Shown here one piece after another: positions 5,163 through 64,000 of a stretch of 64,000 nt of DNA; the stretch's first letter is position 1, and each line of letters begins with the position of its first letter. The position numbers and the translations under genes were made by a program. The notes under the pieces were generated by a model. It was given only the letters and a program-made list of their open reading frames with translations, made no database searches and was not told where the DNA came from. Location of the stretch: the IMG/VR virus record IMGVR_UViG_3300029305_006219; one strand, given 5' to 3'. This stretch comes from a virus.

Positions 5163-5846
5163 ATGATTAAAGAATTTAAGAATAATCCTGTAAGAGATTT
5201 TGGTAACGTATATCAGACTATGTTGTCACAGATAAAAAAGAGATATGAGAAAGATCCTGTACAAGCTGGAGAATTAGCTATTAGTTTTATTGAATATGTA
5301 TTAACAGGTGATATTAGTAGTGACGATGATATTATTGAAGGCTTTGTTGAAGGATATAAGGTTACGACTAAAAAGAATCAAGATAAATATGATGCTAAGG
5401 TCGCTGCAACAAGAGACGCGCTAAAGCCAATTGCAGATATGTATAATAGGGGTATGACACAGGCGGCGATTGCGCGTGAGCTAGGTGTTCAGCCGCCCGC
5501 TATTTCAAAGAAAATGTCTACCATTCGTACACAGTTTCCAGAGTTGTTAGATAATGAAGGAAAATTAAAGAAAGTTTCCGAAAATTCTGGAAATAATGGA
5601 AAGTTTCCAAAAAATGAGGAAAGTATAGAAAAAGTTTCTGAAAATTCTGGAAATATTAAGAAAGAAGAAGAAAGTTTAGAAACGTTTCCAAGTTTCCAAA
5701 GTTTCCACAATAATAATAACTATAATAACAATAATAACTAGAATAATAATAATGAAGTTTCCATTTCGCCTCGCGGCGAGTCAGGGCTTCGCCCCGACAC
5801 CCCTGCGGCTTCGCCGATAAAGAAGATTGGAGGGTTTGAGTTTTGA
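5163..5846 (+). CDS. HTH DNA-binding protein (sigma-70 region-4 / ArpU-RinA-like helix-turn-helix), with a possible C-terminal extension past the TAG at 5739
   Basis: RBS ggaggt plus ATG at 5163. HTH motif GMTQAAIARELGVQPPAISKKMSTIR. The track ORF stops at the TAG at 5739-5741, and the frame then stays open to the TGA at 5844-5846. The 3' end is built from repeated KVSENSGN / GTTTCCA units. Confidence 0.5.
5571..5770. repeat. iteron-like direct repeats (A)AAGTTTCC(A/G)AAA, at least 7 copies including three tandem copies, followed by an AT-rich (AAT)n tract and a GC-rich segment
   Basis: aaagtttccgaaaa, aaagtttccaaaaa, aaagtttctgaaaa, cgtttccaa-gtttccaaa-gtttccacaa and agtttccattt, all inside the 3' end of the HTH gene. 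Confidence 0.5.
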
Positions 5847-6124
5847 GGGGAGTATATGTAATTGCTGATGATATGGGAAGAGTTTACTATGTGGGACAGA
5901 GTGAATAGTTGGAAAATAGAACATGGGGACATTTAGCTAAAATAAAACAAGATGAGAATAAATATAAGAAAAATAAATTATATTGGATATTGGGTAGATT
6001 GAATGATTTAAAAGTTGGGCTTCATTGTTATTTATTAGAAGAGTATCCGTCATGGAATAGAATCGATATTAAGACAAGAGAAAAAGAAAATATTCGATTG
6101 TTAAAACCTGTATTAAATACTTAG
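5843..6124 (+). CDS. small GIY-YIG nuclease (about 93 aa) containing 1 in-frame TAG
   Basis: RBS GGAGGG plus a TTG start. The motif GVYVIADDMGRVYYVGQSE(TAG)LENRTWGHL matches GIY...YIG...R...H. The TAG lies inside the conserved block, at a position that is D/N-like in I-TevI and UvrC. Confidence 0.55.
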
Positions 6125-6315
6125 GTTCCTACTGATTGCATTTGTTATATGAAGAATATTTGGAATGCGGTAACAGCGGCAGTTCAGGCAGATGAAAATG
6201 GAAGATGGGATTTTAAAGGATGTAGGAAAATATGGTGAAGATGTGGAGAAATTATAGTAGAGTGGAGAGTTGTCCTGCGACCGAATCCAGAACCACTTCC
6301 ACTCATCTCTCGTCT

Positions 6316-10625: not shown

Positions 10626-10798
10626 AGGTTGACCATTCTCGCTTTCTCGCCACTCCTTGCGCATAGGGGACTTTGGTTTTAATGGTCTGCAAAGGCGTGT
10701 GATTTGAACACACATCTGTTGGAAACGAAACCAACTGTTCTTCCATTAAACTACCCTTTGTTATGTATGAGGGGCGCATTTGCGCCCCTGTGCCTCAC

Positions 10799-19346: not shown

Positions 19347-19826
19347 TTATAGTTCCTTAAAACGCTCGTTTTCTATTTCTCCTAGACTCTTTCGAATCTC
19401 TTCAGGATAATGATGTTTTACGCATTTAAAAATATTCTTTTTACCCATTGGATATAATTCGCCAACATGGCGGAAAAAGAAGCATATAGGCGGCAAATGT
19501 GTAACTATATCACTTCCATTTCTAAACATGGTGAAATGTGCCCAGCGCTCTCTTAATTCTTTCTTAACGCGCCAGCCGCCATAGATTCTAGGTCCATCAA
19601 ATCCAATACCGGTTAACCCCTCTGCGCGCAAGTCTTCTCTATGAAACCACACAGCTTCATGACATAATGCGGCAAGAGCTGCGCCATGACTATAACCAAC
19701 TACTACAATACGTTTCCACCTATAATCGCCGCTAAATCCTTTCTCGGTTGCGCGCCTAATAACAATATCTTCTATTGTTTTCCAGCACTTTAAGAAGCCT
19801 CCATGTACCCTATATTTTATCTTCAT
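19347..19826 (-). CDS. class-3 lipase-like alpha/beta-hydrolase fragment (159 aa), possibly N-terminally truncated
   Basis: GxSxG nucleophile elbow GYSHGAALA. The protein is shorter than typical Lipase_3 family members. No start codon is available further upstream in frame. Confidence 0.4.
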   Translation of the reverse strand: MKIKYRVHGGFLKCWKTIEDIVIRRATEKGFSGDYRWKRIVVVGYSHGAALAALCHEAVWFHREDLRAEGLTGIGFDGPRIYGGWRVKKELRERWAHFTMFRNGSDIVTHLPPICFFFRHVGELYPMGKKNIFKCVKHHYPEEIRKSLGEIENERFKEL

Positions 19827-20167
19827 ATCTTTATAGGGGCGGCGCCAGTAGGCGAAGTTAGCGCACCAATCTAGCTTACCGCGACTTGGCTAGAAAAAGA
19901 TGTAAAGTGTCTTATCGCTCTCCAAAAATGCATAATTTACTTTGCCCTCTGCCTCTTGGTACTCAATCCAATTATTGCACCAATTAAATAACTATACTAA
20001 ATTCATGGCGCGCCCACCCTTAGCCGCTTAAGGTAACTGTCTAAGGAAGATATAACCTAGACCGGCGCTCTCTTAAAATAATAATCATCTCTTTTCTCCT
20101 TTCATATGATGATACTATTATTATAACAGATTTTTTTATAAAGTCAAGTACTTATTTCATTAACCTC

Positions 20168-51650: not shown

Positions 51651-51765
51651 TTAAAATTCTTATCAAAATGATTTAATCGAATTATTTTAGTTTTTATATA
51701 TTTATAGACAAAGAGAGAAATAATTTATTTCTCTCTTTGAATTTTAAGATAGGAGGTTATTGAAT

Positions 51766-52098
51766 ATGGTTATTCAACAAAATTGTAATTTTATTGAAAA
51801 TGCCAGTGCTCCTATTGTATCAAAAACATTTTCTAATGCGGCAAGCGACACCTTAACGCTGCAAATAAGTGGCGCTAATGGTAAGTATTATCTTGAAGGA
51901 CGCAATAATTCTATGGGTGACTGGTTTGCGCTCGCAGGTATTAGCTTAAGTGACTTCTCTGCCCACCGAGGAGTGTTTACAAAAGCTGGTATCTATGAGA
52001 TTGGCGTAGTCGGTATTCGTGAAGTACGCGTACGAATAGAATCAGTAGAAGGAAATGTTTCTATTTTTGGACAAATGATAAGCACGGAGGAGACGTAA
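51766..52098 (+). CDS. hypothetical structural protein (about 110 aa)
   Basis: RBS ataggagg plus ATG at 51766, inside track ORF 51760..52098. Confidence 0.45.
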   Translation: MVIQQNCNFIENASAPIVSKTFSNAASDTLTLQISGANGKYYLEGRNNSMGDWFALAGISLSDFSAHRGVFTKAGIYEIGVVGIREVRVRIESVEGNVSIFGQMISTEET

Positions 52099-53005: not shown

Positions 53006-53872
53006 ATGGCAAGAGAAAAAGGTACATTTCTAGTCTCAGCTAATTATGAGCCGCAAAAAGCTGCCCCATTCGATGCGCGGGCTTTGGTTGAAACTAAAGC
53101 AGATTTATTTGCGGCAAATACATGGGCTATAAATAACGAATTGTGGATTTATAAAGGTATGATAGTTGCAGTTGCAACTGACATTGAGCCTAAAAACAAT
53201 GGTATTTATATGCTCTTAGACGATGTAAATTATTTTAATGAAGATGCTTGGCTTAAAATGTCTGACTCAACCATGGACGGCGAGTCTGCTGGTGAGGTTC
53301 TAGGTCAATTAAATTCTTATAAAGAGACTAACGATGCGGTAGTTGCTGCTATCAATGGTAAGATTGGAACTCCTGGTGAGGGACAAAATGATGAAGGCGA
53401 TACGCTTTATAGCTTAATTGCAGAAGCGCAAACTCAGGCTAATAAAGGTGTTGCCGATGCGAAGACAGCGAATGACGCAATTGCAGCGTTAACCAATGGC
53501 GCAATTGCTACTAATACATCTGACATTAGCGCAATTAAAGGTAGACTTACTACTCTTGAGACAGAAGTTCTTCCTATTATCAATAAGCATAGTGATATTC
53601 TTGCAGGCATTGGCGGCGATGGTGAAAAAGCAACAGTTAAGGCATATGTTGATGATGCTATTGCAGCAATTCCTACTTATGAACTTCCTGCAGCTACTGC
53701 TGAAACTCTTGGTGGAGTTAAGTCTGCGGCTGATGTTGACGGGAAAGCAGTTACAAATGCAGTTTATGTTGATGCAACTAGCAATGTTGGTAGTGTAAAA
53801 ACTATAAGCACAGATATATTAGTCCAAGGGGTCGAAGAGCTTATTCTTAATGGCGGTAGCGCCAAGGCTTAA
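53006..53872 (+). CDS. fibre-like structural protein (288 aa, no TAG)
   Basis: Intact ORF with an Ala/Thr-rich repetitive C-terminus. A GC hairpin at 53903-53926 carries the same 23-mer as 17775-17797, in inverted orientation. Confidence 0.45.
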   Translation: MAREKGTFLVSANYEPQKAAPFDARALVETKADLFAANTWAINNELWIYKGMIVAVATDIEPKNNGIYMLLDDVNYFNEDAWLKMSDSTMDGESAGEVLGQLNSYKETNDAVVAAINGKIGTPGEGQNDEGDTLYSLIAEAQTQANKGVADAKTANDAIAALTNGAIATNTSDISAIKGRLTTLETEVLPIINKHSDILAGIGGDGEKATVKAYVDDAIAAIPTYELPAATAETLGGVKSAADVDGKAVTNAVYVDATSNVGSVKTISTDILVQGVEELILNGGSAKA

Positions 53873-53966
53873 TTATAAGCCACTTAATATATAAAATATA
53901 AGACGCCTTAGGGTGACCTTTGGCGCCGATTAAATAAATTCATAATTTAAAGGAGATTTTAAAATT

Positions 53967-55481
53967 ATGGCGAAACAAATTAATACTCGTATCATGCTTA
54001 AGCATGATAGCTTAACTAATTGGAATGAATCCTCTATAGTTCTTAAGCCAGGTGAAGTTGGTATAGCATATGTAGATGTTACAACCACTGATGCCAAGGG
54101 CAATATTATTCATGTTCCTACTGCTCTTTTAAAAGTAGGTGAAAATGTAGAGAATTCTACCAAAACTTTTAAAGAGCTTCCCTTTATGTCTGCTATTGCA
54201 GCTGATGTTTATGCATGGGCAAAGAAGAGCGGAATTGAAGTAGTAGACGAAGGAGAGGGAGAGGTTCTTTCTGATGTAACTTGGGAGAATGACAAACTCG
54301 TTCTTCATAGATTAGATGTTGTAACTCCAGCAGAACTTACAACGGCTCTTGGAAGTTACTATACAAAAGATGAAATTGATGGCAAGATTGAGGAAATCAG
54401 TCAGTCTATTTCGGACCTTGACGTATCTGCTCTTGAAGGTAGAGTTGATGCAGTAGAGACTGCTGTCGAAACAACACTCCCTGGTCAAATCAGCGCAGTA
54501 GATGCAAAATTTGCAAGCTATACAACAACAGCTGCGCAACAAGCAATTGATGCGGAACAGGATCGTAGACTTGGCGTTATCGAGGGTGATTATGTAAAAT
54601 CTGCTGATATTGCCAACTTTGAAACAAAAGAGAATGTTCAGAAGGTTGCAAACGATCTTGCAGGATATCAAACTTCTAATGACGCAGCTCTTGCAGCAGT
54701 AAAAGCAACAGCTGATGCGGCTGCAGTTAAGACTGAGGTTGAGACAGCTCTTGCTGATAGATATACTAAAACCGAGGCAGATGCTGCTTTTGATGCAAAA
54801 GGCAGTGCTGATCAAGCATTAACCGATGCTAAGGACTATACTGATACCCAAATTCAAGCTATCATGGGTGGAGAAGTCGATGAAGCTTATAACTCTTTCT
54901 TAGAGATTCAGAATTTCTTAAAGGCTGATGAAACTGCTACTGCTCAGCTTGTTGAAAAGGTAAATGCGAATGAGGCGGCCGCAGCTGCAGCTCAGGCAAA
55001 GGCTGATGCTGCACTTCCTACAGCTACCGCGGAGGCAGATTACTTAAAGAAAACAGATGCATCTACCATTTACGAGCCTATTGGTGCACAAGCTGCTGCA
55101 GAGGCTACTGCTAAAGGTTATACCGATACAGAGATTGCAAAGCTTAGCAATGTTTATGATGCTAAGGGTGCTGCTGCTGATGCACAGGCGGCTGCTATCG
55201 CAGATGCTGCGGGCAAGTATGAGACAAAAGGTACTGCTCAAGGTATTGTTGACGCTTTAAACCTTGCTCAAACTTATGAGCCTATTGGCGCAGAAGGTAG
55301 AGCTATTGCTGCGGCAAAGACTGAAACTGAGAACCAGATTGCAGCTCTTGGTATTGAAGATTATGCAAAGAGCGCAGATGTGGCTACTACATATCGCGCA
55401 AAGGCAGATAAGATTACTTCTGATGATCTCTCTGACGAAGTTTTCATCTTTAATTGCGGAACAGCATCTACTGTTATATAA
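53967..55481 (+). CDS. coiled-coil, alanine-rich tail fibre protein (504 aa, no TAG)
   Basis: Strong RBS taaaggag. Long Ala/Glu/Thr-rich repeats are typical of fibre shafts. A strong terminator follows. Confidence 0.5.
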   Translation: MAKQINTRIMLKHDSLTNWNESSIVLKPGEVGIAYVDVTTTDAKGNIIHVPTALLKVGENVENSTKTFKELPFMSAIAADVYAWAKKSGIEVVDEGEGEVLSDVTWENDKLVLHRLDVVTPAELTTALGSYYTKDEIDGKIEEISQSISDLDVSALEGRVDAVETAVETTLPGQISAVDAKFASYTTTAAQQAIDAEQDRRLGVIEGDYVKSADIANFETKENVQKVANDLAGYQTSNDAALAAVKATADAAAVKTEVETALADRYTKTEADAAFDAKGSADQALTDAKDYTDTQIQAIMGGEVDEAYNSFLEIQNFLKADETATAQLVEKVNANEAAAAAAQAKADAALPTATAEADYLKKTDASTIYEPIGAQAAAEATAKGYTDTEIAKLSNVYDAKGAAADAQAAAIADAAGKYETKGTAQGIVDALNLAQTYEPIGAEGRAIAAAKTETENQIAALGIEDYAKSADVATTYRAKADKITSDDLSDEVFIFNCGTASTVI

Positions 55482-59715: not shown

Positions 59716-59930
59716 TAAAAATAAAGGAACTCATTTTGAGTTCCTTTTTTATTGAAAGAAATAATTTAATACGATTTTAATTGATTACTGTTAAAATGAT
59801 TTCCTCATCATATGGATGAGGATTTTTTTATTCTCCTGTTAAATTTCAAAATTTATATCAAAATTTATTAAAGCGATTAAGTAAATTTTAATATAAATTT
59901 GAACAAGAGTGAAAGGAGAAATAAACTCGA

Positions 59931-60416
59931 ATGAATATGTATAATAATCTAACTCAACAGACACCCTATATGTATGGATATGGGATGCAACCACAGTATC
60001 AGAGAATGATGCAGACTCAACAGACAGATTAGAGTGCGCCTAGCGTTGCTCCATAGCAGCAATATACCGCGCCTATAATGATGTCACAAGGCAATTACAT
60101 TAAAGGTCGTCCAGTAGTCTCGATTGATGAAGCAAGAGCTAGTCAAATCGATTTAGATGGATCGCTCTATGTTTTCCCAGACTTAGGAAATAAGAAGATT
60201 TATACCAAACAGATTAACATGGATGGCACTGCCGCTTTTAATGTATTTGAATTAAGCACTCCAAGTGAAGCTGCGCCGGCGCCGGTGTATGTTACTAAGG
60301 ATGAGCTTGATGAAATTTTGGCAAGTTTTAAGGCAAGTTTGGTTTAGGAAAAATCACAAGAACCTGGACCGGCGCGCAATGTAAAAGCGCAAGTAAATGC
60401 GCCATTTAATCTATAA
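59931..60416 (+). CDS. hypothetical protein with a Q/M/Y-rich N-terminus (about 161 aa, 4 in-frame TAG)
   Basis: RBS gaaaggag plus ATG at 59931. Track ORF 60078..60347 is in the same frame. TAA at 60414-60416. Confidence 0.45.
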
Positions 60417-60427
60417 GGAGGTAAAAT

Positions 60428-60676
60428 ATGGCTTACAATGTAGACCCCGCATATTTATTAATGCAAATGCGTTAGGGCAAAAATCCAGAACAATTAATGA
60501 TTGATATTCTTGAAGGAGAAGCGTCACAAAATCCTATTATGGGTAATCTCTTGTCAATGGCAAAAGATAATCGTACAGCAGATATTGAAAAATTCGCACG
60601 TAATCTTGCCAAAGAACAAGGAATTGATTTTGATAAAGAGTTCAGTAGGTTCAAAAAGCAGTATTTTGGACTCTGA
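60428..60676 (+). CDS. small protein (about 82 aa, 1 in-frame TAG)
   Basis: RBS ggaggt plus ATG at 60428. TGA at 60674-60676. Confidence 0.4.
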
Positions 60677-60709: not shown

Positions 60710-61159
60710 ATGTTCAACACTTCAAATGGATATTCTTTATCCGACATCGCCGCAGTAACAGGCGGCAACAGAGGAAATGGAGGTTTCGGTGACGGCTTTG
60801 GTGAGAACGGTTGGTGGATCATCTTATTGTTTCTTTTCACTGGATGGGGAAGAAATGGTTGGGGCAACAACGGAGGCTCTGAAGGAGGCGCAGGTTACAT
60901 TTTAAATCCTTACTTCTATGGAGCTAACTTTGGTGGATCAGCTTGTGCAACTAAAGATGATGTTCGCGCTGCAGTCGATCAGCAAACTTTAATTTCTAAA
61001 CTTGATAACCAAACTTATGGTTTAGCTGATAGCACATACGCATTAAGTAATGCTATCACAACAGGATTCCACGGAGTAGATAACGCTATCTGTACTCTTG
61101 GATATCAAAACCAAGCTGGATTTACAGCCCTTGGTAACCAGATCGCAGAATGCTGCTAA
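60710..61159 (+). CDS. glycine-rich membrane protein (149 aa) with a YjcZ-like Gly/Trp-flanked hydrophobic core
   Basis: Strong RBS aaaggagg. Core GGNRGNGGFGDGFGENGWWIILLFLFTGWGRNGWGNNGG. No TAG. Confidence 0.5.
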   Translation: MFNTSNGYSLSDIAAVTGGNRGNGGFGDGFGENGWWIILLFLFTGWGRNGWGNNGGSEGGAGYILNPYFYGANFGGSACATKDDVRAAVDQQTLISKLDNQTYGLADSTYALSNAITTGFHGVDNAICTLGYQNQAGFTALGNQIAECC

Positions 61160-61335
61160 AGTCATTGGCAGCCTAATAGGTAACTATTAGAAAACAATTC
61201 GGAGAATTGCTGGAAGGCTAATTTCACAAAATAAAAAATTAAGGACAAAAATTATTCATCCATTAAACTCAATTTTAAATATATATTGAACAATGAAGTT
61301 CATAATTCAATATAGAATAATAAAGGAGATTAAAA

Positions 61336-62136
61336 ATGGAAGAAAATAAGTTTTATGTATATGAATGGTATAATGTTGATACCAATTATGTCTTTTATGT
61401 AGGCAAAGGCTGCGGGAAACGATATCGAGAGATGGCGCGCAGAAATCAATTATTCAAATAGTATTGTATGGATTATAATGTAGATTCAAGAATTGTTAAA
61501 GATCAGCTCACAGAAGAACAAGCTTTTAAATATGAAGCAGAGTTAACTTATTACTACAAAGAAAAAGGTGAATGTCATTGTAGTTTAGCTAAACCTGGAA
61601 CTGGAGGCTACTCTTTTGTATGGACAGAGGATATGAAACAATATTGGTCTAAATATAACCCAATGAAAGCTCAAGAATAGAGAGAAAGAATGTCTAAGAA
61701 TAATCCTATGAAAAATCCAGAATTTGCAAAAAAAGCTGGAGATAAACATAAGCGACCTATTATAATAAACAAAACCCGATATGATGGTCTAGTTGATGCA
61801 GCAAGAGCATATGGAGTAGCAGAGACAACTGTCGTAGGATGGTGTAAAAAAGGAGGCAATCCTCAAGGAGAATTATGTTATTATGAGGATGAAGGACCCA
61901 AACCATTCACTCCTAGTTTAAGTACAAAAGTTCCTATTATTGTAAATGGAATATGGTATGAGAGCAAAGGAGCCGCAGCGAAAGCTATTGGTGCGCCAAA
62001 TGGTTCTTGTTTCAATAGCGCGTTAAAAAATGGGATTTTATATAAAGGACAATATAAATGTGAATATGCTAATCAGCAGCCGAGCCAAGGGAATTCCAAT
62101 AACAGTACCTTGGAAGGTTCAACGACTAACGAGTGA
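61336..62136 (+). CDS. GIY-YIG homing endonuclease with NUMOD-like C-terminal repeats (about 266 aa, 2 in-frame TAG)
   Basis: RBS aaaggag plus ATG at 61336. GIY-YIG motif FYVYEWYNVDTNYVFYVGKGCGKRYREMARRN. Track ORFs 61468 and 61690 are in the same frame. The C-terminus repeats NPMK... Confidence 0.55.
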
Positions 62137-62366
62137 GGATGGATACCAATAATCTCGACACGAGTACCGAACTCCTATTTAGATAGGATGAAGATATAGT
62201 CTGATCTTATAGGAAACTATAAGAAATACAAGATAAAGAGCTTGTATGATAACATAATGGTGACACTCGCGCCGCAATTGCTGATGTAAAAACTCAAGGC
62301 GTTATAAATACTAACGCTCTTGCTTCACAATTAGCTGCTTGCTGCTGCGACATTGAGAAGGCTAAC

Positions 62367-62687
62367 ATGGAAAATCGTTTTGCCGCTCAAACTTATAACT
62401 GCAATACGCTTCAAGCTATTGACAAACTTGGTGATAGAATCATCGATTTCATGACGCAAGATAAGATCGCTTCTCTTACTGCAGAGAATCAGTCTCTTAA
62501 ATTCGCGGCATCACAAGCAAATCAAAATGCATTTATCACTGCAAATCAAGAAGCTCAGACTGCAGAACTTATTCGCAGACTTTCGACTCCATGTCCCGTT
62601 CCTGCGTATGTAGTTCCTAACCCCAACTGCTGCTACGATTATCAAGTAACTCGTAACTGCGGTTGCGGTAATTGCGTAAGCTTCTAA
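62367..62687 (+). CDS. small protein with a Cys-rich C-terminus (106 aa)
   Basis: ORF from the track. The C-terminus is CPVPAYVVPNPNCCYDYQVTRNCGCGNCVSF. Confidence 0.45.
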   Translation: MENRFAAQTYNCNTLQAIDKLGDRIIDFMTQDKIASLTAENQSLKFAASQANQNAFITANQEAQTAELIRRLSTPCPVPAYVVPNPNCCYDYQVTRNCGCGNCVSF

Positions 62688-62715
62688 TTAATTTTAAACG
62701 GAGGCTTAGATAAGA

Positions 62716-63135
62716 ATGGAAATTACAGCAAATGCTCTGCAGACGGTAGAGCTTAATCAAAATGTTCAGTTTACCGACACTGCGGTTTGCGGCAGCTGCT
62801 CCATTATGCATCGTGATGGTAGTGGTTTAGTAACTCTTCGTGGTCTTACTAACCAATGTCGTGCGAGATTTAAGGCGTTCTTCAGCGGGAATATAGCCAT
62901 TCCCGCTGACGGAACTGTTGAAGCGATCTCTCTTGCGATTGCTATTAACGGAGAGGCTGTGGCTACAACCACAATGATCCAAACTCCAGCGGCAGTAGAA
63001 GAATTCGCTAATGTAGCTAGCGCAGTATATATTGACGTTCCTGCTAATTGCTGCATCACAGTTAGCGTAAGAAATACTAGTACGCAAGCTATTGATGTTC
63101 AAAATGCAAACTTAATTATAGAAAGGGTGGCGTAA
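62716..63135 (+). CDS. BclA-C-terminal / C1q-TNF-like jelly-roll domain protein (139 aa)
   Basis: The pattern ..LAIAINGEAVA....SAVYIDVPANCCITVSVRNTSTQAIDVQNANLIIERV resembles the exosporium BclA C-terminal domain and phage receptor-binding C1q-like domains. RBS acggagg. Confidence 0.4.
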   Translation: MEITANALQTVELNQNVQFTDTAVCGSCSIMHRDGSGLVTLRGLTNQCRARFKAFFSGNIAIPADGTVEAISLAIAINGEAVATTTMIQTPAAVEEFANVASAVYIDVPANCCITVSVRNTSTQAIDVQNANLIIERVA

Positions 63136-63136
63136 T

Positions 63137-63856
63137 ATGGAAAAATTAAAATAGATGAAAGAGGCGCTCGTCGGTTGTGTTCAAGGCCAGGTCTATGGCA
63201 ACATGGAGAAGGTCGACGCTCAAGAGCTTGGCGCCGCCATTGATATGATTAAGGATCTTAGTGAAGCTATCTATTATTGTACAATTACTGAGGCTATGGA
63301 GGAAGAAGGCGAAGATAAAGAAGGTAAAGGCAAGCACGGAATGATGTATTATTCTCGTACAACTCCTATGTATCATATGCCTTATCCTGTTGAGATGTAT
63401 GACCCTCGCAATAGAGAAAGATATTATTCACCAATGTATGCGCAAAGTGGCGAAAATAGTGGTGGCTATTCTAGCTCGTCTAATGGCAATAGTTCGAACT
63501 CCTCAGGTGGTAATGATGCGCGCGGAGGCGGCACTCGTGGCTACCATGAGGGAATGATTCCAGGTGAACATTATCCAATGTATAACGATGGTATGTATTC
63601 AATGTACGAACGCGGCGGTAATCGAGGATATATGGAAGCTATGAGTCGTGACCCTAAAGAAGGAAGAAGCGGCGAACGCCGCAAGATGTATATGGACGGT
63701 AAAGGTATGAAAGATAAAGCTCATCAAATGAAAGAGCTTGAATCTTATATGCAAGAACTTTCCAGTGATCTCACAGAGATGATTCAAGACGCATCTCCTG
63801 AAGAAAAACAACTTCTACAACAAAAGATAAGCATGCTCGCTACTAAAATTAAATAA
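63137..63856 (+). CDS. Tyr/Met/Gly-rich low-complexity protein (about 239 aa, 1 in-frame TAG near the N-terminus)
   Basis: RBS gggtgg plus ATG at 63137, in frame with track ORF 63155..63856. Repeats MYxxMY, GYSSSSNGNSS and GGNRGYMEAM are present. Confidence 0.45.
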
Positions 63857-64000
63857 TGTTTACCATTAATGGAGAACAATGGTGGATTGTTTTAGTTATG
63901 CCATACGACGTTGCGCTTTTAATGCCTGACGGTAACTTTGCTATTGGGGCGTGTAATGATGCAACTAAAACTATCTATATTAGTAACGAACTTTATGGTG
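63856..64000 (+). CDS. partial ORF (5' end only) running off the window
   Basis: ATG at 63856 overlaps the previous stop. The frame is open to the end of the window. Confidence 0.3.
   Translation, partial: MFTINGEQWWIVLVMPYDVALLMPDGNFAIGACNDATKTIYISNELYG

Follow-up and report, generated by a model that had tools for sequence, protein, structure and literature searches.

A mobile group I intron with a TAG-recoded endonuclease gene splits a conserved gene of a late gut-phage operon

Phage T4 carries in td a mobile group IA intron with a GIY-YIG endonuclease, I-TevI. Mobile phage group IA introns with GIY-YIG endonucleases have also been described in nrdF of the B. cereus group, where the endonuclease is unconventional (PMC2248736), and in the Bastillevirinae (PMC11878797), and are reviewed in PMC3984707. 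In the TGA-recoded Agate phages the intron endonuclease is itself recoded, and its stops were proposed to delay synthesis until the code switch (bioRxiv 10.1101/2021.08.26.457843). Here we analyze a cluster at the end of a 64,000-nt stretch of viral DNA, IMG/VR record IMGVR_UViG_3300029305_006219 (the window; coordinates without a contig name refer to it), where a mobile group I intron with a recoded endonuclease gene splits sp291, a gene of a conserved operon. The initial annotation, made from the sequence, had described this cluster as small genes for spore-surface-like proteins.

The window intron resembles group IA phage introns in its P1 with a U·G wobble, P10, P7, P7.1 and 3'-terminal G, in its J8/7-P7 sequence (GAUAUAGUC), in the endonuclease open reading frame (ORF) being looped out of the ribozyme, and in its insertion into a highly conserved coding motif with sporadic presence among close relatives. 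It differs from them in its host gene, an uncharacterised gut-phage gene rather than one for nucleotide metabolism, a polymerase, a lysin or a terminase, and in its ORF, which begins after P2, extends about 110 nt into P3-P7 and contains TAG sense codons. As in Agate, the endonuclease gene has in-frame reassigned stops, so that its full expression would have to await the code switch, whereas splicing of the intron RNA would be possible at any time. Unlike in Agate, the reassigned codon is TAG (Gln) and not TGA (Trp), only two codons are recoded, and the intron resides in a late-strand gene, not in an early one.

Like ExsFA/BxpB (compare the BclA C-terminal domain, CTD, and F-BclA, the tip of F-ENA; PDB 1wck, 9h38, 7r1m), the product of the next gene, g139, is a stand-alone domain in a Cys-rich context. 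Unlike these exosporium proteins, it has neither collagen-like nor N-terminal targeting regions, is not a member of their sequence families, is encoded by lytic phages, one of them of a non-sporulating host, and is always paired with a sp291 gene. The C1q/TNF-like knobs known from phages (the tail fibres of cyanophages A4 and A-1(L), the receptor-binding domain of TM4 gp23, PRD1 P5, the Sf6 needle) are C-terminal domains of long fibre proteins that vary with the host range, whereas g139 is a separate 139-aa polypeptide and unusually conserved.

A group I intron splits sp291

Four consecutive small genes had been proposed for this cluster. However, the first two ORFs, 60710-61159 and 62367-62687, are two exons of one 291-aa gene, sp291 (Table 1). 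The first ORF ends with ...NQIAECC-stop, while the frame of the second one is open for 35 codons further upstream, to 62260. When T61157 is joined to G62260, the frame stays open over 291 aa and reads ...AECC-C-DTRAAIADVK... across the junction, recreating a CCCD motif that recurs 29 residues on; the intron interrupts the third Cys codon of this invariant motif. The ATG of the second ORF is the internal Met186 of the spliced protein, and the ribosome-binding site (RBS) initially ascribed to this ORF is likewise internal. The expected sequence of the ligated exons is GAATGCTGCT/GTGACACTCG (the slash marks the junction), spliced reads would span GCAGAATGCTGCT/GTGACACTCGCGCC, and the intronless target in a close relative, L003, reads ...AACTGCTGCTGCGATACC....

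The best intronless homologues of the spliced protein (P0001 and P0002) are 291 aa long and show 93% identity at 100% coverage; C148, C149, C150 and D151 are invariant among the aligned homologues. In the MAFFT nucleotide alignment with the intronless L003 there is a single gap, exactly 61158-62259. The spliced protein matches phrog_16490 (E 2e-49) and, in a tblastn search against phage records, nine of them in a single piece. More than 8,000 sp291 homologues are present in the databases, and thousands of uninterrupted homologues of ~285 aa run across the junction. The open frame, the full-length homologues, the exact gap and the Rfam match described below therefore identify the two ORFs as exons of one gene.

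In the Rfam scan of positions 59.5-64 kb, RF00028 (Intron_gpI) matches 62027-62223 (45.8 bits, E 1.3e-9). The exon side of P1, GCUGCU (61152-57), pairs with the guide GGCAGC (61167-72), and RNAfold finds P1 and P2, while P5, P7, P7.1, P8, P9 and P9.1 are recovered by RNAalifold, with compensatory double changes in six core base pairs among the compared intron copies. Excision of 61158-62259 restores the sp291 reading frame; by analogy with established group I intron biology, we infer that the intron would splice itself from the mRNA with this outcome.

Further intron copies were located in public collections with a core 38-mer and core sequences; the exact exon-intron junction 21-mer has no matches in viral contigs. 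Copies residing in diverged sp291 genes were found in L067 (IMG/VR), L130 and the fragment L081, the spliced protein of L067 having only ~40% local identity to sp291. The pairings with the exons co-vary: GCUGCU/GGCAGC in P1 of the window corresponds to AGUGUU/GACACU in L067, and GUCAU:GUGAC in P10, to ACAAU:GUUGU in L067 and UUCAU:GUGAA in L130. All sp291 intron copies are inserted within the TGY-TGY-TGY (CCC) motif, with the L067 site one codon upstream. The absence of the intron from the close relatives L003, L004, L059 and L061 is typical of a mobile element.

Moreover, a 30-nt ribozyme element, ATATAGTCTGATCTTATAGGAAACTATAAG (J8/7-P7-P9), is found exactly in 78 metagenome contigs (L068-L145) from marine, freshwater, rumen and gut habitats, mostly in other introns of other genes, and thus the intron belongs to a large, widespread phage intron family. 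An 81%-identical copy of the intron 3' core lies in L061 (13359-13431, on the strand opposite to the sp291 module) in a different gene, of the replication block, sp291 of L061 being intronless; the intron family has thus moved between genes within the phage lineage.

Four public contigs are identical to the window (L146-L149; JGI 3300024272, 3300024269, 3300018475, 3300023371), and standard-code gene calls on them comprise ORFs of 149, 41, 70, 148 and 106 aa. The public annotation of this phage thereby repeats the mis-parse, with one conserved gene cut into five ORFs, while recognition of the intron and of the TAG recoding gives the true products, the 291-aa protein and a 266-aa endonuclease.

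The recoded endonuclease and TAG usage

In the window phage TAG is read as a sense codon. With TAG read through, plus-strand ORFs extend to as much as 3,142 aa, a length that includes 82 TAGs in frame, and the standard code fragments these long ORFs. The codon means Gln, as TAGs of the window phage and its relatives align with CAA/CAG Gln codons of orthologues; examples are codon 6 of g239 (63152-54, within the frame if translation starts at 63137), aligned with Gln in L003, and the TAGs in sp291 of L003 and L059, aligned with CAA/CAG in the window.

It is firmly established that the intron endonuclease is recoded. The three fragments produced by the standard code are in the same frame, both interruptions are TAG, and at the position of the second TAG all 17 compared homologues have Gln. 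The N-terminal motif FYVYEW-x-FYVGKG (YVY-x11-YVG) is GIY-YIG-like, and 18 homologues all share R29, R36, E60 and E67. The protein matches phrog_314, "homing endonuclease" (E 9e-8), and has 1,126 homologues (more than 1,100 of them full-length), some of them with PF07453 (NUMOD1), PF22083 (I-HmuI-NUMOD) or PF01541; the latter, the Pfam GIY-YIG domain, has a precomputed match in one homologue with 49% identity, P0479. The L067 copy matches HTH_psq, HTH_28 and NUMOD1, and the search of PDB sequences with the endonuclease gave chance-level matches only. Judging by these motifs, the endonuclease is of the GIY-YIG type, with the caveat that PF01541 does not match it directly. Over its last ~35 codons the ORF runs into the ribozyme core (P3-P7.1), and this overlap accounts for the near-invariant C-terminus CEYANQQPSQ...STTNE. 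The initial annotation correctly placed a GIY-YIG-like ORF between the first two ORFs, but rather than interrupting a cluster of genes, it sits in an intron that splits one gene.

Owing to the two in-frame TAGs, the full endonuclease is readable only once TAG is decoded as Gln. It would cut intronless alleles of co-infecting relatives, leading to homing into the TGY-TGY-TGY site. By analogy, the logic proposed for Agate, endonuclease synthesis delayed until the code switch, may apply here: a mobile intron with an endonuclease in the alternative code of the phage would have a ribozyme active at any time and homing gated by the code switch.

The cluster had been called mostly TAG-free and translatable without the suppressor. 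Indeed, three of the ORFs initially delineated have no TAG, and sp291 and g139 in the window genome contain none among 17 and 7 Gln-type codons, respectively (one of 11 in g239), while in late genes TAG constitutes 34% of such codons; however, this feature is neither specific nor conserved. About ten late genes have no TAG, among them the capsid-type genes 26540, 28465 and 29580 and the tube-like 33363, as well as the Ala-rich fibre genes 53006 and 53967 (0 of 19). The orthologues of sp291 and g139 in L003, L004, L016 and L059 contain TAG, and so do up161 (three) and up82 (one), the first two genes of the same operon. TAG frequency drops as gene GC rises (Spearman -0.53, p 0.002). Horizontal acquisition was considered as the cause of the TAG-freeness and of the higher GC content at third codon positions, but in the comparison with L003 the conservation of the module exceeds that of the replication genes next to it only modestly (80% and 71% nucleotide identity, respectively).

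Several further features touch on the code and on endonucleases. The two Ala-rich genes (53006-55481, plus strand; 288 and 504 aa) are GC-richer and encode coiled-coil fibre-like sequences with no PHROG match. The sole tRNA of the window is at 10689-10760 on the minus strand (Rfam tRNA, 44.6 bits); ARAGORN reads its anticodon as the four bases "tcgt", in a loop of 8 nt. A CUA (TAG-suppressor) tRNA was not found in the 64 kb, though TAG is decoded as Gln. A second, non-intronic nuclease is encoded by a free-standing GIY-YIG ORF at 5843-6238 (plus strand; PF01541, E 1e-6), with two TAG codons.

The operon, its products and its distribution

The conservation of the sp291-g139 pair, and of the operon that contains it, is firmly established. 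The interval 60710-63856, to which the cluster had been assigned, does contain the ORFs described, but the cluster starts at 59931 and runs past 63856 into the gene of a SprT-like peptidase (Table 1). The order of the six genes, up161-up82-sp291-g139-g239-d106, is kept in the relatives L003, L004, L008, L016, L059 and L061, and up161 is also syntenic in the phages CPD1 and Ceridwen. In the window phage the operon follows the tail (baseplate/fibre) genes on the same strand, beyond two strong terminator-like hairpins, both in a gap of 215 nt, the largest intergenic gap of the late strand. The ATG of d106 overlaps the stop codon of g239, and d106 is complete on the identical public contigs. The close relatives, contigs of 66-176 kb from public assemblies, have genes for PolIIIα, NrdD, dUTPase and guanylate kinase directly downstream of the cluster, on the opposite strand.

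Table 1. Features of the sp291 locus and endonuclease genes adjacent to sp291 homologues
Feature	Position	Strand	Description
Two terminator-like hairpins	59723-59747, 59802-59822	+	upstream of the operon
up161	59931-60416	+	first operon gene; phrog_21718 (unknown function); 3 TAG
up82	60428-60676	+	small Met/Gln-rich helical protein; 1 TAG
sp291 with intron	60710-62687	+	third operon gene
sp291 exon 1	60710-61157	+	codons 1-149 and first base of Cys150, alignment-based; Gly-rich N-terminus, short hydrophobic segment (residues 35-46), start of long helical region
Group I intron	61158-62259	+	1,102 nt; Rfam, RNAfold, alignment gap, covariation with L067, L130, L081
P1	61152-61159 : 61165-61172		U61157·G61167 wobble at splice site
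P10	61161-65 : 62260-64		guide GUCAU : exon 2 GUGAC
P2	61173-61190		
Homing endonuclease ORF	61336-62136	+	266 aa; in-frame TAG at 61459-61 and 61678-80
P5	62085-62113		
P7	62124-28 : 62197-62201		GACUA : UAGUC
P7.1	62130-57		
P8	62173-88		
P9	62205-24		
P9.1	62226-47		
ωG	62259		3'-terminal G
sp291 exon 2	62260-62687	+	rest of Cys150 to residue 291, alignment-based; remaining long helix with second CCCD motif, Pro/Cys-rich tail
g139	62716-63135	+	predicted C1q/TNF/BclA-CTD-like jelly roll; phrog_20016
g239	63137-63856	+	helical ends, low-complexity core; start 63137 or 63155
d106, 5' part	63856-64000	+	small HExxH SprT-like metallopeptidase, last operon gene; cut by window end
Free-standing endonuclease, CPD1_038	L001 6185-6808		by sp291 homologue
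Free-standing endonuclease, Ceridwen	L066 8512-9306		by sp291 homologue
Free-standing endonuclease, C3_41T2LP	L063 3802-4422		by sp291 homologue
Free-standing endonuclease, cr52_1 gp26	L064 6829-7407		by sp291 homologue

The gene directly downstream of sp291 almost always encodes a Cys-containing beta protein of 125-155 aa. In 41 of the 55 genome-collection loci it is g139, and in 13 more, including two cultured-phage loci added separately, this slot is filled by family B, Cys-rich 125-155-aa beta proteins typified by CPD1_040, with an N-terminal C-x3-C-x2-C and an "IRTRTRY" motif (L001 7517-7894, L002 7860-8279 and 11 other loci). Certain relatives have two g139 copies in tandem, or a g139 gene with a further in-frame domain beyond a TAG (L058 6592-7467; L048 6844-7665); such post-TAG domains may be read-through extensions.

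The N-terminal part of sp291 (residues 1-78) is 28% Gly and has a 12-residue Trp- and Gly-flanked hydrophobic stretch (WWIILLFLF), so that the Gly/Trp-rich character ascribed to the first ORF is real, while membrane embedding is less clear, the segment being short for a bilayer. Residues 79-258 are predicted to form long helices (roughly 175 residues) with two CCCD motifs, and residues 259-291 are 18% Cys and 15% Pro, with the tail ending in CC..C.C..C, as had been noted. Similarity to YjcZ was not borne out: NCBIfam and Pfam give no match at E<=1, and YjcZ proteins are tiny (~50 aa) and single-spanning, whereas here we deal with the N-terminus of a 291-aa protein.

The jelly roll recognized earlier in the third ORF agrees with the structural model, in which the entire 139 aa of g139 form one beta domain; as a prediction, the BclA-CTD/C1q-like fold is firmly established. 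The structurally closest proteins are the exosporium/ENA proteins F-BclA CTD, BclA CTD and ExsFA, and fibre tips of phages often have this fold as well (9k09, 8ke9, 9n6a, PRD1 P5, the receptor-binding protein (RBP) of Bacillus phage Sam46), while the nearest neighbors in BFVD are stand-alone phage proteins of 130-142 aa. In a profile search of 1.84 billion representatives the g139 family comprises 759 clusters; among the best 150 of these 759 representatives the proteins are 61-196 aa long, the domain spans nearly the whole protein, and no fusion to a collagen-like, stalk or fibre region is seen. Neither collagen-like GXX repeats nor an N-terminal exosporium-targeting region is present in g139, and BclA C-terminal Pfam/NCBIfam models and PDB sequences do not match it. 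Across relatives g139 retains 70-95% identity, compared with 25-50% for neighboring tail-fibre genes.

The product of g239 has conserved helical termini and a core rich in Gly, Tyr, Ser, Met and Arg (18% Gly, 12% Tyr, 10% Met), in line with its earlier description as Tyr/Met/Gly-rich, and that of up161 combines a Q/M/Y-rich N-terminus with a conserved domain. Pfam, NCBIfam and PADLOC yielded nothing significant for sp291, g139, g239, up161 and up82, and the g139 and sp291 profiles found only chance-level matches among PDB sequences; a literature search for C1q-like phage decoration proteins found nothing relevant. A ferritin-like domain was suspected in CPD1_043 and L002_next332, and up82 seemed STI1-like, but Pfam supported neither idea and both were dropped.

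The six-gene operon is present in thousands of contigs of gut Clostridia phages, including large phages with their own replication genes. Homologues are held by bins of metagenome-assembled genomes from Acutalibacteraceae, Oscillospiraceae, Lachnospiraceae and other Clostridia; megablast of positions 52-64 kb against INPHARED gave no match. Among cultured phages, Ceridwen, for which only lytic growth was observed, on Butyrivibrio fibrisolvens, has up161-like, up82-like, sp291, g139, HNH and g239-like genes, all after the endolysin; Butyrivibrio is a non-spore-forming genus. In the C. perfringens phages CPD1 and XP41-N3 the module follows the amidase and holin, and an HNH-like gene is located just upstream of sp291. 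In C3_41T2LP, a phage of Bacteroides uniformis, the sp291 homologue is preceded by an I-HmuI-like gene and followed by one for a PolyVal metallopeptidase; the homologue of the crAss-like cr52_1 is gp23, with a LysB/FtsL-like gene nearby; the homologues in crAss and Bacteroides phages are annotated as "spike/viral fiber". With more than 8,000 sp291 and about 8,000 g139 database matches, this is a very abundant gut-phage gene pair, and cultivable systems are available, Ceridwen for the pair and CPD1-type C. perfringens phages and C3_41T2LP for sp291. The proteins of interest are QHJ73768 and QHJ73769 in Ceridwen and CPD1_039 and CPD1_040 in CPD1.

In four unrelated cultured or reference phages, HNH/I-HmuI-like genes are 0-2 genes away from the sp291 homologue (Table 1); these repeated endonuclease neighbors mark the sp291 locus as a homing-endonuclease hot spot. 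Nuclease genes have been considered as markers of phage exchange boundaries (PMC10448857), and sp291 as a recurrent nuclease neighbor or target fits this view.

Possible roles of the sp291-g139 pair

The intron-split sp291 belongs to a conserved six-gene operon, and we consider this overall reading of the region probable. With low confidence, sp291 would oligomerise into a coiled-coil stalk anchored by the N-terminal hydrophobic segment, g139 trimers would dock on or cap its Cys/Pro-rich tail, and disulfides or metal sites would lock the assembly, which would serve the lytic cycle, on the virion or at the cell envelope, rather than spore formation. Several observations weigh against parts of this interpretation. 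The RF00028 score is just below the gathering score of 50; the ORF separates the core from the real P1/P2, 850 nt upstream, which lowers the score and led the covariance model to force false local P1/P2. PF01541 directly matches neither the 266-aa endonuclease nor its L067 copy. The hydrophobic segment (~12 residues) is short for a bilayer span, and the AlphaFold2 (AF2) monomer model of the sp291 homologue P0001 is poor (pLDDT 50, pTM 0.19), as would be expected for an oligomeric coiled coil. The link between sp291 and g139 is one of adjacency, and the partner families A (g139) and B show no detectable homology by hhalign (probability 0.7%). Moreover, the site of the module varies: it is post-tail in the window phage, CPD1, Ceridwen and bajarodcaudo virus 5 have it behind the lysis cassette, and in C3_41T2LP the sp291 homologue resides among recombination genes, which makes a single shared role hard to place in time.

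If there were no intron, the 149-aa and 106-aa ORFs would be two genes in their own right, on either side of a free-standing endonuclease gene that may be decaying. Standard-code callers do parse contigs of the same phage into 149, 41, 70, 148 and 106-aa ORFs, a weak GAGAAGG precedes the ATG of the second ORF, and the Rfam score is slightly below the threshold. However, this is hardly credible in view of the thousands of uninterrupted homologues over the junction, the best of them 93% identical, the exact alignment gap, the 35 open codons ahead of the supposed ATG, the presence of P1, P10 and ωG, the core pairs co-varying in three to four independent copies, and both endonuclease "stops" being TAG, that is, Gln in this phage. 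The initial annotation further suggested spore coat or exosporium-like morons, which a prophage of a spore-former would express and which would decorate or modify spores. The structural neighbors of g139 (F-BclA CTD, BclA CTD, ExsFA) agree with that, as do the Cys-rich or Tyr/Gly-rich composition and lack of signal peptides, like in mother-cell-assembled coat proteins, the many Clostridia among predicted hosts, the sp291 homologues in C. perfringens phages, and the operon being its own transcription unit with few TAG codons. Still, a stable syntenic, not sporadic, module in phages with replication genes and in phages for which only lytic growth was observed, one of them on Butyrivibrio, makes spore morons very unlikely. 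No integrase or repressor is seen near the module in the 66-176 kb relatives with PolIIIα, NrdD and dUTPase; Ceridwen carries five of the genes or their likes (up161, up82, sp291, g139, g239); sp291 homologues occur in Bacteroides uniformis and crAss-like phages; no YjcZ, BclA_C or coat-family hidden Markov model matches; g139 has no collagen-like region or targeting motif; and up161, the first operon gene, requires three TAG read-throughs. A BclA-like fold, common as it is in phage fibre tips, does not by itself imply spore biology.

A role on the virion, the fallback of the initial annotation (a virion-surface or receptor-binding accessory), is possible, if tentative: sp291 would be a trimeric coiled-coil shaft and g139 its distal C1q-like knob, together forming a head or tail fibre or a receptor-binding accessory, with g239 and the peptidase as assembly factors. 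In the window lineage the operon directly follows baseplate/fibre genes on the same strand, C1q/TNF-like knobs cap known phage fibres (those listed above for the g139 fold), the crAss and Bacteroides homologues are annotated accordingly, signal peptides are absent, the TAG-free, higher-GC genes include capsid-type ones, and introns and homing endonuclease genes (HEGs) typically reside in conserved, important genes. On the other hand, receptor-binding tips usually show the reverse of the pattern seen here, with g139 more conserved than its tail-fibre neighbors. In small phages the module has a post-lysis or early-region position: CPD1, XP41-N3, Ceridwen and bajarodcaudo virus 5 carry it beyond holin/endolysin and away from the structural block, and C3_41T2LP, among recombination genes. 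Moreover, two terminators separate it from the tail genes in the window, and a hydrophobic Gly/Trp-flanked segment is unusual for a fibre. A role at the cell envelope is likewise possible, though rather doubtful: sp291 would be membrane-anchored with a large C-terminal domain, in a topology like that of T4 holin T, phi29 p16.7 and i-spanins, and g139 or family B would be its soluble partner in lysis timing, envelope remodelling or superinfection exclusion. The Trp-flanked segment ~35 residues in is the most constant feature of the Clostridia, Bacteroides and crAss homologues, in several small phages the module directly follows the lysis cassette, a LysB/FtsL-like gene is near in cr52_1, and the long helical region with conserved Cys may resemble i-spanin and holin-T ectodomains. 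However, the hydrophobic core is only ~12 residues, no holin, spanin or PADLOC family matches, the small phages concerned already have annotated holins, and, as the partners lack a signal peptide, a complex outside the cytoplasm would depend on some other means of export.

More broadly, we tentatively suggest that sp291, its C1q-like or family-B partner, the low-complexity proteins up161, up82 and g239, and the metallopeptidase could constitute an unrecognised apparatus very widespread in gut phages, an anchored, Cys- or metal-cross-linked coiled-coil stalk with trimeric heads. If so, phages of both monoderm Clostridia and diderm Bacteroidota would possess it at the infected-cell envelope or on the virion, and sp291 would be conserved enough to be a recurrent target, of the intron-borne GIY-YIG endonuclease here and of free-standing HNH/I-HmuI-like ones elsewhere.

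Two other genes of the window are of possible relevance to lysis. Between two divergent gene blocks, 19347-20006 (minus strand) encodes a protein with a class-3 lipase domain (PF01764, E 9e-14) and two TAG codons, which could be a lysis or envelope-degrading accessory. Among the fibre genes, 51760-52098 (plus strand) is a TAG-free 112-aa ORF, for which a precomputed Pfam match to XepA, a family of PBSX lytic-cassette proteins, exists on an identical contig (L146 77-409).

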